From Escherichia coli (GTDB taxonomy: Bacteria; Pseudomonadota; Gammaproteobacteria; Enterobacterales; Enterobacteriaceae), in assembly GCF_024223415.1 (NCBI RefSeq), contig NZ_CP100500.1: a stretch of 64,000 nt of DNA. One strand, given 5' to 3'. Positions within the stretch are counted from its first letter, which is position 1. Each line of letters starts with the position of its first letter. The notes beneath the pieces were generated by a model, which had not been told where the DNA came from, searched no databases, and saw only the letters and a list, made by a program, of their open reading frames with translations. Below are positions 30,870-63,003 of the stretch, piece by piece. Position numbers and translations under genes: made by a program.

Positions 30870-30945
<76 letters not shown>

Positions 30946-30980
30946 TTGGGTGGTCTGTGCCTTACAGCACTTTCAAATTT

Positions 30981-31056
<76 letters not shown>

Positions 31057-31092
31057 TTGGGTGGTCTGTGCTTTGCAGCACTTTTCAAATTT

Positions 31093-31168
<76 letters not shown>

Positions 31169-45250: not shown

Positions 45251-45784
45251 ATGCGCCTGCTCCCTCTCGTTGCCGCAGCGACAGCTGCATTTCTGGTCGT
45301 TGCCTGCAGTTCTCCTACGCCGCCGCGTGGCGTGACCGTAGTGAATAATTTCGACGCTAAACGCTATCTCGGTACCTGGTATGAGATTGCCCGTTTTGAT
45401 CACCGCTTTGAACGTGGACTGGAAAAAGTCACCGCAACATACAGCCTGAGGGATGATGGCGGCCTGAATGTCATTAATAAAGGCTATAACCCTGACAGAG
45501 AAATGTGGCAGCAGAGTGAAGGGAAAGCGTACTTTACCGGCGCACCAACTCGCGCTGCGCTGAAAGTGTCATTCTTTGGTCCTTTCTATGGCGGTTATAA
45601 CGTTATTGCACTCGATCGGGAATACCGCCATGCGCTGGTTTGCGGCCCGGACCGCGACTACCTGTGGATACTCTCCCGCACGCCAACCATTTCTGACGAA
45701 GTGAAACAGGAGATGCTGGCAGTCGCGACCCGGGAAGGGTTTGATGTCAGTAAGTTTATTTGGGTACAGCAGCCCGGTAGTTAG
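45251..45784 (+). CDS. blc: outer-membrane lipocalin Blc
   Basis: ORF 177 aa [25 protein letters not shown] (lipobox) then lipocalin GTWYEIA motif. Confidence 0.92.
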
Positions 45785-46098
45785 TGAGTGCTGAGTTTCA
45801 GACCAATAATCCCCAATACGATTAACGCCAGACTCGCCAGACGCATCGGGTTAGCGGACTCACCGAGCAGCACAATGCCGGTGATGGCCGCGCCGACTGC
45901 GCCAATACCCGTCCACACGGCATAAGCCGTCCCTACTGGTAACGATTTCATCGCCCAGGCAAGTAGCGCCATACTGACAATCATCGCCGTCACGGTAATA
46001 ACACTCGGCGTCAAACGACTAAAGCCGTGGGTATATTTCAGGCCAACGGCCCATACCACTTCCAGCAGACCAGCAATAACTAAGATAATCCAGGACAT
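45781..46098 (-). CDS. gdx: SMR-family guanidinium exporter Gdx (SugE)
   Basis: ORF 45781..46161(-) trimmed to [26 protein letters not shown], 105 aa, conserved membrane-embedded Glu. Confidence 0.9.
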
Positions 46099-46114: not shown

Positions 46115-46162
46115 TTGGGGCCGTCCCCGGTGAAAAGAGGCGTTTGCAGGTCGTCCTGCAAA
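46115..46162 (-). ncRNA. guanidine-II (mini-ykkC) riboswitch in the gdx 5' leader
   Basis: transcribed strand reads UUGCAGG-ACGA-CCUGCAA ... GGGG-ACGG-CCCC: two short GC-rich hairpins with ACGR tetraloops, directly upstream of the gdx RBS. Confidence 0.6.
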
Positions 46163-46278
46163 GCTGATGGTTGAACGGATATTTTGCCAGGTGGCAGAGG
46201 AATTTCAACTATTACCTTTGTGACTATCGCAAAAAAACAAACGGCACGACACAGCTGTCGTACCGTTATTGCTTATTG

Positions 46279-46425
46279 CTATTGCTGCGCTTTCGTTGCT
46301 GCGCCAGAAATCGCGTTACCGCCATCAGAAATGTCTTCACCAACGCCACGCGTAGTGTTGCAGGCAGTTAATACTGTTGAAAGCACCAGAACAGAAAAGA
46401 TCGCTGCAATTGTCTTCTTCACCAT
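46279..46425 (-). CDS. ecnB: entericidin B lipoprotein (bacteriolytic)
   Basis: minus-strand 48-codon [51 protein letters not shown], lipobox LTAC, RBS GGAAG; too short for the ORF track. Confidence 0.85.
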
Positions 46426-46535
46426 AACGTCTTCCTTTTAGGTAATGTTATTTATGTTTGCCTATAGCAAATTAATAATAGACAACATCGCCAAAAATGA
46501 TGGAAATCTGATGATTTTTCGGAAGAGAAGAAAAA

Positions 46536-46661
46536 TTAGCTGGCAGCGCGGGAGATGGAGTTGCCGAGATGTTTGATATCTTCGCCGAAACCGCGAGCGG
46601 TGTTACAGCCCGTGAGCAGCGTGCTGGCAAGCAAAACAAGAACGATAAGGCGTTTCATCAT
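46536..46661 (-). CDS. ecnA: entericidin A lipoprotein (antidote to EcnB)
   Basis: minus-strand 41-codon [44 protein letters not shown], paralogous to EcnB. Confidence 0.85.
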
Positions 46662-46712
46662 CTCTGACCTGAATAAGTGATGGTGCAGCCTGCAGGCCGC
46701 ACCACAACCGCA

Positions 46713-47279
46713 TTACTTCACGCGAGAGACGTATTCACCAGAGCGGGTATCCACTTTGATGACTTCGCCGATTTGTACGAACAGCGGAACTTTAACCACA
46801 GCGCCAGTAGACAGGGTAGCCGGTTTGCCGCCAGTACCTGCGGTATCACCTTTCAGGCCCGGATCGGTATCAACGATTTCCAGTTCAACGAAGTTCGGCG
46901 GAGTAACGGAGATCGGCTGACCATTCCACAGAGTTACGATACACTCTGCCTGATCCAGCAGCCATTTCGCGTTGTCGCCAATTGCTTTTGCATCAGCAGA
47001 CAGCTGCTCGAAAGTTTCGTTGTTCATGAAGTGCCAGAACTCACCGTCGTTGTACAGGTAAGTCAGGTTCATATCGACAACATCAGCGCCTTCAGCGGAG
47101 TCAGTAGATTTGAAGGTTTTTTCTACGCGAGTACCGGTCAGCAGACGACGCAGTTTAACGCGAGCAAATGCCTGGCCTTTACCCGGTTTTACGAATTCAC
47201 TCGCTTCAACCGCGTAAGGTTCGCCGTCTAACATGATTTTAAGACCAGCACGAAAATCGTTGCTATAGTACGTTGCCAT
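46713..47279 (-). CDS. efp: translation elongation factor P
   Basis: ORF 188 aa [45 protein letters not shown] (modified Lys34 in the KPGKG loop). Confidence 0.95.
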
Positions 47280-60296: not shown

Positions 60297-60372
60297 GCCC
60301 GGATAGCTCAGTCGGTAGAGCAGGGGATTGAAAATCCCCGTGTCCTTGGTTCGATTCCGAGTCCGGGCACCA
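60297..60372 (+). tRNA. pheU: tRNA-Phe (anticodon GAA)
   Basis: GCCCGGATAGCTCAGTCGGTAGAGCAGGGGATTGAAAATCCCCGTGTCCTTGGTTCGATTCCGAGTCCGGGCACCA; cloverleaf, GAA anticodon, encoded CCA. Confidence 0.95.
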
Positions 60373-60382
60373 AATTCATATA

Positions 60383-60409
60383 AACGGACCTCCACGGAGG
60401 TCCGTTTTT
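60383..60409 (+). terminator. intrinsic terminator of pheU
   Basis: cggacctcc-acgg-aggtccg hairpin followed by TTTTT, 10 nt after the tRNA CCA end. Confidence 0.6.
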
Positions 60410-60569
60410 CGTTTCAGGACGCCACGATTTAAGCGTCCTGCCGCCAAATCAATTCTACCGAACTCAACCAGACTCCCCCCACATCAACCCCATTGTGTGG
60501 GTATAATTGCGGGTATACCCCAGTTCGACAGAATTTGTACCCTCTTTAACGCATTCAGAAGGCTGAACT

Positions 60570-61832
60570 ATGGCACTGACTGACGCAAAAATCCGGGCTG
60601 CAAAGCACACTGACAAGGCTTATAAACTCACTGACGGGGCTGGCATGTTCCTGCTGGTACATCCTAATGGTTCCCGTTACTGGCGTCTCCGTTATCGCAT
60701 TCTGGGTAAGGAGAAAACTCTGGCACTTGGTGTATACCCGGAGGTTTCTCTCTCCGAAGCTCGTACAAAACGGGATGAGGCCCGAAAACTGATTTCGGAG
60801 GGGATTGACCCTTGCGAACAGAAAAGAGCTAAAAAAGTAGTCCCTGATTTACAACTCTCTTTTGAACATATTGCACGACGCTGGCATGCCAGTAATAAAC
60901 AATGGGCACAATCACACAGCGATAAGGTACTCAAAAGCCTCGAAACACACGTTTTCCCCTTTATCGGCAACCGGAACATCACAACACTCAATACCCCGGA
61001 CCTGCTTATCCCTGTTCGTGCTGCAGAAGCTAAACAAATTTATGAAATCGCCAGTCGTCTGCAGCAAAGAATATCTGCTGTAATGCGTTATGCCGTACAG
61101 TCTGGCATCATCAGATATAATCCTGCTCTGGATATGGCTGGCGCATTGACTACGGTAAAACGCCAGCATCGCCCCGCTCTTGATCTTTCTCGCCTGCCTG
61201 AACTTTTGTCGCGTATTGGCAGTTACAAGGGGCAACCTGTCACCCAGCTTGCCGTTATGCTGAATTTACTGGTTTTTATTCGTTCCAGTGAACTCAGATA
61301 CGCCCGCTGGTCTGAAATTGATATTGACAATGCCATGTGGACTATTCCAGCCGAACGCGAACCCCTGCCAGGCGTAAAATTCTCACACCGGGGCTCCAAG
61401 ATGCGAACACCACATCTTGTGCCACTCAGCAAACAGGCTGTAGCCATACTGACAGAACTACAGACATGGGCTGGTGAAAATGGTCTGATCTTTACGGGAG
61501 CACATGACCCGCGTAAACCAATCAGTGAAAATACTGTAAATAAAGCCCTGAGGGTGATGGGGTATGACACAACCCAGGATGTCTGTGGCCATGGATTCCG
61601 GGCGATGGCGTGCAGTGCATTGATTGAATCAGGTTTGTGGTCCCGCGATGCTGTGGAACGTCAGATGAGCCATCAGGAGCGTAATGGTGTACGTGCTGCG
61701 TATATCCATAAAGCAGAACATCTGGAAGAACGTCGACTGATGCTACAGTGGTGGGCAGATTTTCTGGATGCGAACAGAGATAAGGGTATCAGCCCGTTTG
61801 AATATGCAAAGATTAACAATCCATTAAAATAG
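60570..61832 (+). CDS. P4-type tyrosine recombinase (genomic-island integrase)
   Basis: ORF 420 aa MALTDAKIRAAKHTDKAYKLTDGAGMFLLVHPNGSRYWRLRYR..., Arm-binding N-terminus typical of P4-like Int; catalytic HGFR and downstream Tyr (RAAYIH) present; ~200 bp from tRNA-Phe 3' end. Confidence 0.9.
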   Translation: MALTDAKIRAAKHTDKAYKLTDGAGMFLLVHPNGSRYWRLRYRILGKEKTLALGVYPEVSLSEARTKRDEARKLISEGIDPCEQKRAKKVVPDLQLSFEHIARRWHASNKQWAQSHSDKVLKSLETHVFPFIGNRNITTLNTPDLLIPVRAAEAKQIYEIASRLQQRISAVMRYAVQSGIIRYNPALDMAGALTTVKRQHRPALDLSRLPELLSRIGSYKGQPVTQLAVMLNLLVFIRSSELRYARWSEIDIDNAMWTIPAEREPLPGVKFSHRGSKMRTPHLVPLSKQAVAILTELQTWAGENGLIFTGAHDPRKPISENTVNKALRVMGYDTTQDVCGHGFRAMACSALIESGLWSRDAVERQMSHQERNGVRAAYIHKAEHLEERRLMLQWWADFLDANRDKGISPFEYAKINNPLK

Positions 61833-61835
61833 TAA

Positions 61836-61880
61836 GCAGTCCGGGCTGATTGCCCGGACTGCTTTAACTGATTATTTTTC
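61836..61880 (+). terminator. putative intrinsic terminator after integrase gene
   Basis: gcagtccgggc-tgat-tgcccggactgc hairpin followed by a T-rich tract. Confidence 0.45.
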
Positions 61881-62097
61881 TTTGTAAATGATGACGAAGA
61901 TTGATGTTCTGGCAAGTTACTCCGGCTTCCATTAAAGTCCCTTCGTCATGTTCTTCAGGCTATTTATGACTGTGATTAGCACCAGGAATATCTGGTTTCC
62001 ATGAGAGCAGGTAATAACCCCCGGTGTTTTCGGCTGTTCTGGTATCCTTGTCCAACACAGGCAGTCATTATAAACGGTAAAAAATGTGGATTTGCCC

Positions 62098-63003
62098 CTA
62101 TATTTCCAGACATCTGTTATCACTTAACCCATTACAGGCCCGCTGCCGCAGATATTCCCGTGGCGAGCGATAACCCAACGCACTATGCGGATGCCATTCG
62201 TTATAATGCTCGAACGCCTCTGCAAGGTTCTTTGCTGCCGTTAACCCGTCTGGTTTGGGCATGACACTGATGTAGTCACGCTTTATCGTTTTCACGAAGC
62301 TCTCTGCTATGCCGTTACTCTCCGGACTCCGCACCGCCGTGTTCTTCGGTTCAAGCCCCAACATCCGGGCAAACTGCCGTGTTTCATTAGCCCGGTAGCA
62401 TGAACCATTATCCGTCAGCCACTCTACTGGAGACGCCGGAAGCTCGTTGCCGAAGCGGCGTTCCACCGCTCCTGGCATGACGTCCTGTACTGTTTCACTG
62501 TTGAAGCCGCCCGTAGTGACCGCCCAGTGCAGTGCCTCACGGTCACAGCAGTCCAGCGCGAACGTGACTCGCAGTTTTTCTCCGTTATCACAGCGGAACT
62601 CGAACCCGTCAGAGCACCATCGCTGATTACTTTCTTTCACAGCCACTCTGCCGGTATGTGCCCGTTTCGATGGCGGTACAGCGGTTTTTCGCTCAAGCAA
62701 CAGCGCATTCTGGCGCATGATCCGGTAAATACGTTTGGCATTGATCGCAGGCATACCATCAAGTTCTGTTTGTCTGCGAAGCAGCGCCCATACCCGACAA
62801 TAACCATATGTGGGTAGCTCTCCGATAACATGGTGTATACGGCGAAGCACATCCGTATCATCCGTGTGACGGCTGCGGCGGCCGTCCTTCCAGTCATCGG
62901 CTCGTCTGAGAATGACGTGCAACTGCGCACGCGACACCCGGAGACAACGGCTGACGAAGCTTACTCCCCATCCCCGGGCAATAAGGGCGCGTGCGCTATC
63001 CAC
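62098..63003 (-). CDS. insD: IS2 transposase OrfB (DDE integrase domain)
   Basis: ORF 301 aa [34 protein letters not shown]..., recognised as IS2 InsD. Confidence 0.92.

Follow-up and report, generated by a model that had tools for sequence, protein, structure and literature searches.

The entericidin genes ecnA and ecnB are commonly described as a toxin/antidote pair and a programmed-lysis module, and this label traces to one overexpression study (Bishop et al. 1998, per PMC7296081). As that study is summarised in PMC7296081, overproduction of EcnB increased bacteriolysis, and the presence of ecnA in cis countered the effect. According to papers that cite the same study (PMC5389655, PMC7296081 and PMC5105897), sigma-S activates the locus in stationary phase, and its repression runs through EnvZ/OmpR. 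The ecnA-ecnB pair is also listed among toxin-antitoxin (TA) systems in reviews (PMC10643148).

Like the type II TA modules mazEF and hipBA, the ecn locus pairs two small neighbouring genes, of which the upstream one encodes the proposed antidote and the downstream one the proposed toxin. However, a type II module produces a cytoplasmic enzyme and a DNA-binding antitoxin, whereas the ecn products are paralogous lipoproteins that are exported. In addition, the promoters of ecnA and ecnB are separate, and deletion of the antidote gene ecnA is viable (PMC7296081, citing the Keio collection; PMC5389655). While type II modules are patchy and mobile, the ecn locus belongs to the core genome and is syntenic. 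Another relative is Atu8019 of Agrobacterium tumefaciens, which is described as a small lipobox lipoprotein with an entericidin domain (PMC7296081). Unlike the ecn pair, Atu8019 is encoded by a single gene; it is surface-exposed and vesicle-associated, has a role in vesicle docking, and showed no lysis or pore formation (PMC7296081).

Here we analyzed the ecn locus in a 64,000-nucleotide stretch of Escherichia coli DNA (the window). The initial annotation of the window had recognized, on the minus strand between efp and gdx, two intact tandem mini-ORFs of 41 and 48 codons encoding paralogous entericidin lipoproteins, each with a lipobox cysteine and a GEDI motif.

Identity of the ecnA-ecnB pair

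Both ORFs were found exactly where they had been placed. The ecnA coding sequence (46536..46661, minus strand) starts with ATG and has 41 codons plus a stop codon, and the ecnB coding sequence (46279..46425, minus strand) starts with ATG and has 48 codons plus a stop codon. EcnA matched the NCBIfam entericidin A equivalog NF007319 over residues 1-41 of 41 with 114.9 bits (cut-off 86), and EcnB matched the entericidin B equivalog NF007487 over residues 1-48 of 48 with 121.9 bits (cut-off 94). Since the cross-matches of each protein to the model of the other scored just 44-46 bits, each ORF was assigned to its own equivalog. Both ORFs also passed the cut-off of Pfam PF08085 (26.4 and 30.2 bits, cut-off 23.3). 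The two window proteins are paralogues by BLASTP, with 24 of 44 aligned residues identical (55%, E=4e-14).

The gene order in the window is efp-ecnA-ecnB-gdx/sugE-blc-ampC, followed by frd, with epmB on the far side of efp. Thus, the pair is flanked upstream by the EF-P gene efp (46713..47279, minus strand) and downstream by the SMR exporter gene gdx/sugE (45781..46098, minus strand), and the tandem arrangement of ecnA-ecnB downstream of efp is that of Enterobacteriaceae.

The lipobox pattern [LVI][ASTVI][GAS]C is present in both proteins after an N-terminus rich in K/R and a hydrophobic core. It reads LTGC in EcnA, with Cys19 encoded at 46605..46607 (minus strand) and a mature peptide of 23 aa, and LTAC in EcnB, with Cys22 encoded at 46360..46362 (minus strand) and a mature peptide of 27 aa. 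GEDI was also found in both. When EcnA and EcnB of E. coli, Salmonella and Klebsiella were aligned, the lipobox cysteine was invariant in all six sequences, and the invariant columns were C19, N20, T21, R23, G24, G26, E27, D28, I29, G33, I36 and S37. The mature core of the entericidins, CNT-RG-GEDI...G..IS, is therefore present, as is every other defining feature of the family that was tested.

Lipoproteins are processed by Lgt, LspA and Lnt, with cleavage before the lipobox cysteine and triacylation. The EcnA and EcnB prolipoproteins would accordingly be cut before the lipobox cysteine and triacylated to give lipopeptides of 23 aa and 27 aa, respectively. Because residue +2 is Asn and not Asp, sorting of both lipopeptides to the outer membrane by the Lol system is expected from the +2 rule. 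For EcnB, lipidation at C22 is an assertion of UniProt curation, and top-down mass spectrometry (MS) saw only truncated EcnB (PMC12529367).

The mature peptides also have the periodicity of an amphipathic alpha-helix. The hydrophobic moment at 100 degrees was 0.587 for EcnA (shuffle mean 0.20) and 0.413 for EcnB (shuffle mean 0.15). None of 5000 shuffles reached the observed value for EcnA and a fraction of 0.001 did so for EcnB, and the peak was sharp and occurred at 100 degrees only. The helix predicted from this pattern agrees with the description in the original work. A PDB sequence search found no solved structure related to EcnA or EcnB.

Could the mini-ORFs be chance open frames in an intergenic region, with a spurious similarity to entericidins? 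ORFs this short are common by chance: the ORF listing for 3 kb contained 45 that were 20 aa or longer, and many ORFs of 20-85 aa arise by chance within the same 3 kb. The case for ecnA and ecnB rests, therefore, on homology and conservation and not on the openness of the frames. On the other hand, a chance origin is contradicted by the full-length matches to curated equivalog models (E=1e-33 and 6e-36), by the identity of both proteins to the K-12 proteins, by the bias of substitutions to third codon positions across genera, and by the detection of EcnB by MS (PMC12529367). We rejected the chance-ORF explanation on the equivalog matches, the K-12 identity and the third-position pattern, and consider its probability negligible.

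Comparison with K-12 and other genomes

In the comparison with E. coli K-12 MG1655, the gene order of the window was that of b4147-b4410-b4411-b4148, and both translations were identical to the K-12 proteins EcnA (b4410) and EcnB (b4411), with neither a frameshift nor a premature stop. The K-12 locus has the same 110-nt spacer, hairpin, promoter block, Shine-Dalgarno sequence and terminator as the window. The two loci differ in the coding sequences by three synonymous substitutions (GAT/GAC and TCC/TCT in ecnA, ACT/ACC in ecnB), and in the non-coding flanks by two SNPs and a 1-nt indel. Thus, the identity, sizes, position, paralogy, motifs and intactness that had been read from the window all held. 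It is virtually certain that the window carries the canonical chromosomal entericidin locus, ecnA-ecnB, of E. coli, and the locus is the K-12 ecnAB locus itself rather than a mere relative. We found no evidence against the entericidin identity; the contrary points considered below concern the toxin/antidote physiology only.

Exactly at the ecnB stop codon, the window carries one extra 6-nt mini-repeat unit of the GCAATA type, so that ecnB ends with TAG in the window and with TAA in K-12 while the protein is unchanged. The stretch at 46270..46285 (minus strand) reads CAGCAATAGCAATAAGCAATAA in the window and CAGCAATAAGCAATAA in K-12. Since only 52 of 5425 E. coli genomes matched the window with an identity of 99% or more across a 521-nt query of the locus, the version in the window appears to be uncommon among E. 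coli.

Several E. coli chromosomes matched the same 521-nt query with 100% identity, and their RefSeq annotation names efp, ecnA and ecnB there. Of 5426 complete E. coli genomes, 5425 carried the locus, with a median of one site per genome, and the match covered at least 80% of the query in 5414. Both ecn genes were annotated in 59 of 60 records sampled over the whole ranking. The ecnA and ecnB genes are thus already known and already annotated, and the finding in the window is correct but ordinary; the intact state of the pair is unremarkable, as nearly all E. coli genomes have it. The patchy, horizontally mobile distribution of addiction modules was not found, as the locus occurs in 5425 of 5426 genomes and keeps its chromosomal position in Salmonella and Klebsiella. 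The ecn pair belongs to the vertically inherited core genome, in contrast to typical addiction modules.

Several individual genomes departed from this pattern. In E. coli UPEC129 (NZ_CP071522.1, 3008..3110), ecnA and ecnB are cleanly lost, and efp is followed by sugE after about 100 nt; the two genes can be lost together in nature, as they were in this single natural loss that we inspected. In E. coli strain 222 (NZ_CP020516.1, 1123..1581), an IS200C lies between ecnB and sugE with both ecn genes intact. Strains S51 and 222 have different protein accessions for EcnA and share the accession for EcnB. The conjugative IncHI2 plasmid pPJT1-452kb of Salmonella sp. PJM1 (NZ_OM317741.1, 1..6421) carries the block frdBCD-blc-sugE-luxR(ecnR-like)-ecnB-ecnA-efp-epmB-yjeJ, and this chromosome-type block reflects either the capture of a chromosomal segment or an artefact of assembly or cointegration. 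Several other matches labelled as plasmids were 4.8-5.4 Mb long and are evidently mislabelled chromosomes.

The order efp-ecnA-ecnB-...-sugE-blc is common to the window and to the Salmonella and Klebsiella loci. Unlike the window, the latter two loci lack ampC, and the Salmonella locus contains, between ecnB and sugE, a gene for a LuxR-type regulator (ecnR-like) that is found neither in the window nor in K-12. The Salmonella and Klebsiella EcnB proteins differ from that of the window at 2-4 of 48 residues and keep the core CNT.RG.GEDI...G..IS. The EcnA orthologues of these genera have 43-44 aa, are 68-80% identical, and are named just "entericidin A/B family lipoprotein".

We then compared the substitutions across genera. 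Between E. coli and Salmonella, the ecnB genes differed at 1, 2 and 23 first, second and third codon positions, respectively, and the three between-genus comparisons gave 1/2/23, 5/1/24 and 4/3/22. The Nei-Gojobori dN/dS ratios across genera were 0.013-0.045 for ecnB, 0.007-0.023 for efp and 0.07-0.10 for sugE; for ecnA they were 0.08-0.24 against Salmonella and Klebsiella, with most replacements in the signal peptide. Such tiny genes and an almost saturated dS make these values rough, but the third-position pattern is still clear. E. coli and Klebsiella share the same mature EcnB peptide, even though 14 synonymous changes separate the underlying sequences. Therefore, ecnA and ecnB are real protein-coding genes under purifying selection. 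By these rough dN/dS values, the constraint on ecnB approaches that on efp and the constraint on ecnA is weaker, so that the putative toxin EcnB is held under far stronger constraint than the putative antidote EcnA.

Expression signals and neighbouring features

Between the efp stop codon and the ecnA start codon lies a GC-rich hairpin (46676..46709, minus strand; MFE -22.6 kcal/mol, z=-2.64), and ecnA starts 15 nt behind it. The hairpin is kept in all three genera, with compensatory changes in 4 of 13 pairs of the three-genus alignment. It is probably a terminator or attenuator of efp that limits read-through into ecnA. The U-tract that follows the hairpin in E. coli is weak (CUUAUUC), which fits a leaky element. 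A preprint on efp engineering states that the expression signals of ecnA overlap the 3' end of efp. In front of the ATGATG start of ecnA, the sequence reads as a weak Shine-Dalgarno-like stretch, AGGTCAGAG (46662..46670, minus strand).

The 110-nt spacer between ecnA and ecnB contains the block GATGTTGTCTATTATTAA, which is kept in E. coli, Salmonella and Klebsiella. We placed the putative core of the ecnB promoter at 46461..46490 (minus strand) from this cross-genus conservation and from published work on the promoter ecnB P (PMC5389655). Within the conserved block is a sigma-S-type -10 element, C-TATTAT (46475..46481, minus strand), and downstream of it, in the initially transcribed region, is a -10-like element, TGCTATAGG (46461..46469, minus strand). 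In vitro, sigma38 RNA polymerase transcribes from ecnB P and sigma70 RNA polymerase does so only poorly, and a sigma38-dependent pause at +17/+18 needs the -10-like motif and overlaps an OmpR site (PMC5389655). When the numbering of that paper is mapped onto the window, we infer that these features fall at 46461..46490. A sigma70 consensus scan found no promoter for ecnB, as expected since the ecnB promoter is of the sigma-S type; its sole match (46208..46181) lies downstream of ecnB.

A strong Shine-Dalgarno sequence, AAGGAAG (46431..46437, minus strand), lies 5 nt upstream of the ecnB ATG and is kept in all three genera, and the ecnB 5'UTR showed no significant structure of its own (z=-0.39). 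Experiments have shown that the small RNA MicA represses the ecnB mRNA (PMC3551931). We predicted a pairing site for the 5' seed of MicA at 46394..46424 (minus strand), which takes in the start codon of ecnB and roughly its first ten codons. The RNAduplex energy of nt 1-24 of the K-12 MicA with ecnB was -18.9 kcal/mol, compared with -10.4 +/- 2.4 kcal/mol for shuffled sequences (1 of 500), and the same position gave -17.4 in Salmonella and -17.9 in Klebsiella. Only the 5' seed was significant, as the duplex of full-length MicA with ecnB was no better than shuffles (z=-1.23, 12% of shuffles). The predicted site fits the published repression.

Downstream of ecnB, the terminator scan found an intrinsic terminator with a 12-bp stem and a T-run (46230..46267, minus strand; MFE -26.2 kcal/mol, z=-5.68). 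The stem is kept in Salmonella and Klebsiella, with both arms changed. The efp hairpin and the weak Shine-Dalgarno-like stretch in front of ecnA, as opposed to the promoter, Shine-Dalgarno sequence and terminator that ecnB has of its own, suggested that ecnA and ecnB are adjacent but largely separately controlled. With a conserved -10 block in the spacer and a strong ecnB Shine-Dalgarno sequence, co-expression of the two genes is not obligatory because ecnB has its own promoter; read-through from ecnA to ecnB could still occur. Sigma-S-dependent induction of ecnB has been reported (PMC5105897). In the published work, ecnB has a sigma-S promoter of its own and is restrained by OmpR and by MicA, a sigma-E-dependent sRNA.

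Directly upstream of the gdx/sugE start (46098) is a guanidine-II (mini-ykkC) riboswitch (46116..46162, minus strand; Rfam RF01068, 50.4 bits, gathering score 32), with two hairpins that have ACGA and ACGG loops. It is a known element and is in keeping with guanidinium export by Gdx. A terminator-like match at 46162..46143 was rejected as a terminator, since it is hairpin 1 of this riboswitch. [quoted passage not shown] Because sugE alone did not suppress (PMC12186494), ecnB may be the real groEL suppressor. The block frd-ampC-blc-sugE-ecnAB-efp-epmB is amplified under amoxicillin selection (PMC8430887).

Two other regions of the window were noted. The stretch at 60297..63003 starts with a tRNA-Phe gene (60297..60372, plus strand), followed by an ORF for a tyrosine integrase of 420 aa (60570..61832, plus strand; Pfam Arm-DNA-bind_3, Phage_int_M and Phage_integrase) and, beyond it, by an ORF for an rve-family transposase (62098..63003, minus strand); this arrangement resembles the border of a genomic island that has integrated at a pheU-type tRNA gene. 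Three tandem tRNA-Gly(GCC) genes with 111-112 nt spacing (30870..31168, minus strand) are presumably the glyV-glyX-glyY cluster of K-12.

Function of the EcnA/EcnB pair

The initial annotation had also called the pair a known stationary-phase programmed-lysis module. This description is true to the original proposal (Bishop et al. 1998, per PMC5389655, PMC7296081 and PMC5105897) and to the current RefSeq product names, but the physiological role is contested (PMC7296081, PMC12529367 and PMC5105897). EcnB is one of the small E. coli proteins that MS detects most often, and its level reaches as many as some 70,000 copies per cell in healthy cultures growing in minimal medium (PMC12529367). EcnB is raised in clpP and lon mutants, by 100-fold in the clpP mutant, and EcnA appears nowhere in the same MS study (PMC12529367). 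An inhibitor of LolCDE induces ecnB 7-13-fold and does not induce ecnA (PMC5105897). The viable ecnA deletion speaks against the expectation that an addiction module keeps its antitoxin for as long as it has the toxin gene (PMC7296081, citing the Keio collection). As summarised in a citing paper, EcnB is enriched in slow-growing subpopulations of Salmonella. A literature search found no ribosome-profiling paper mentioning ecnA. The later abundance, deletion and expression data weaken the strong programmed-lysis reading, and we consider it unlikely that the pair runs a physiological programmed lysis as an addiction-type toxin/antitoxin module.

We somewhat favour a dose-dependent model, in which an abundant, stress-induced and membrane-active EcnB is harmful only in excess and is antagonised by its paralogue EcnA. 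EcnB would be a membrane-anchored, membrane-active lipopeptide that is induced by stress and in stationary phase; cells would tolerate its high native level, and only overproduction would make it bacteriolytic. EcnA would be the more weakly expressed and faster-evolving paralogue, and would antagonise EcnB probably by mixing with it in the membrane. For the overall explanation, an entericidin locus with a dose-dependent, membrane-active EcnB that is modulated by EcnA, we estimate a probability of roughly 0.6.

The same genes could serve another biology. EcnB may be an abundant outer-membrane or vesicle lipoprotein of the sigma-S and envelope-stress responses with a structural, protective or chaperone-related role, in which case its toxicity would be an artefact of overproduction and EcnA a weakly expressed paralogue and no antidote. 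Such a role is consistent with the harmless presence of some 70,000 EcnB copies per cell and with the silence of the MS study on EcnA (PMC12529367), with the viability of the ecnA deletion, the occurrence of EcnB homologues in the outer-membrane vesicles of several genera and the absence of lysis by Atu8019 (all PMC7296081), and with the induction of ecnB alone by Lol inhibition (PMC5105897). It is also consistent with the core-genome, syntenic nature of the locus, with a constraint on EcnB close to that on EF-P and a mature peptide unchanged between E. coli and Klebsiella, and with the possibility that ecnB, not sugE, was the groEL suppressor (PMC12186494). However, it has to accommodate the published findings that overproduced EcnB causes lysis and that ecnA in cis relieves it (Bishop 1998, as summarised in PMC7296081), as well as the bacteriolytic activity reported for a secreted EcnB homologue of Enterobacter C6-6 (Schubiger 2015, via PMC7296081). 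The clean loss of both genes from a natural strain, UPEC129, also argues that the function is dispensable. We regard this, the main alternative, as rather unlikely, if slightly less so than physiological programmed lysis. The pair might instead be an interbacterial weapon of the bacteriocin kind, with EcnB released, for example, on vesicles to kill competitors and EcnA serving as the immunity protein of the producer. In the summary given by PMC7296081, an entericidin homologue is required for the antagonism of Enterobacter C6-6 towards Flavobacterium and EcnB homologues occur in vesicles, and a small paralogous partner beside the gene resembles the layout of immunity genes. Yet nearly every E. 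coli carries the pair and EcnB is almost invariant, without the diversification typical of bacteriocin/immunity pairs, and the locus has no gene for export, lysis or receptor binding. A weapon is therefore very improbable.

The dose-dependent model with EcnA as antagonist remains our preferred reading. A further proposal, which we put forward tentatively and at less than even odds, is that EcnB is not a suicide toxin but a small envelope lipoprotein that ranks among the most abundant and most strongly constrained ones of enterobacteria, with another real function, for example in envelope or vesicle biology or as a groEL suppressor, and that EcnA is a diverging paralogue and not an antidote.

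By itself, the finding of the pair is of little weight, as it is annotated in essentially every E. coli genome. It does illustrate that real genes of fewer than 50 codons can be recovered by reading the sequence, even though a length-filtered ORF track would drop them. The question of EcnB function concerns the gene family at large, and there is nothing unusual about the copy in the window. The textbook function of the family rests on thin evidence, with one overexpression study set against the later abundance, deletion and expression data. If EcnB is indeed not a suicide toxin, the RefSeq names "lipoprotein toxin/antitoxin" would be misleading.
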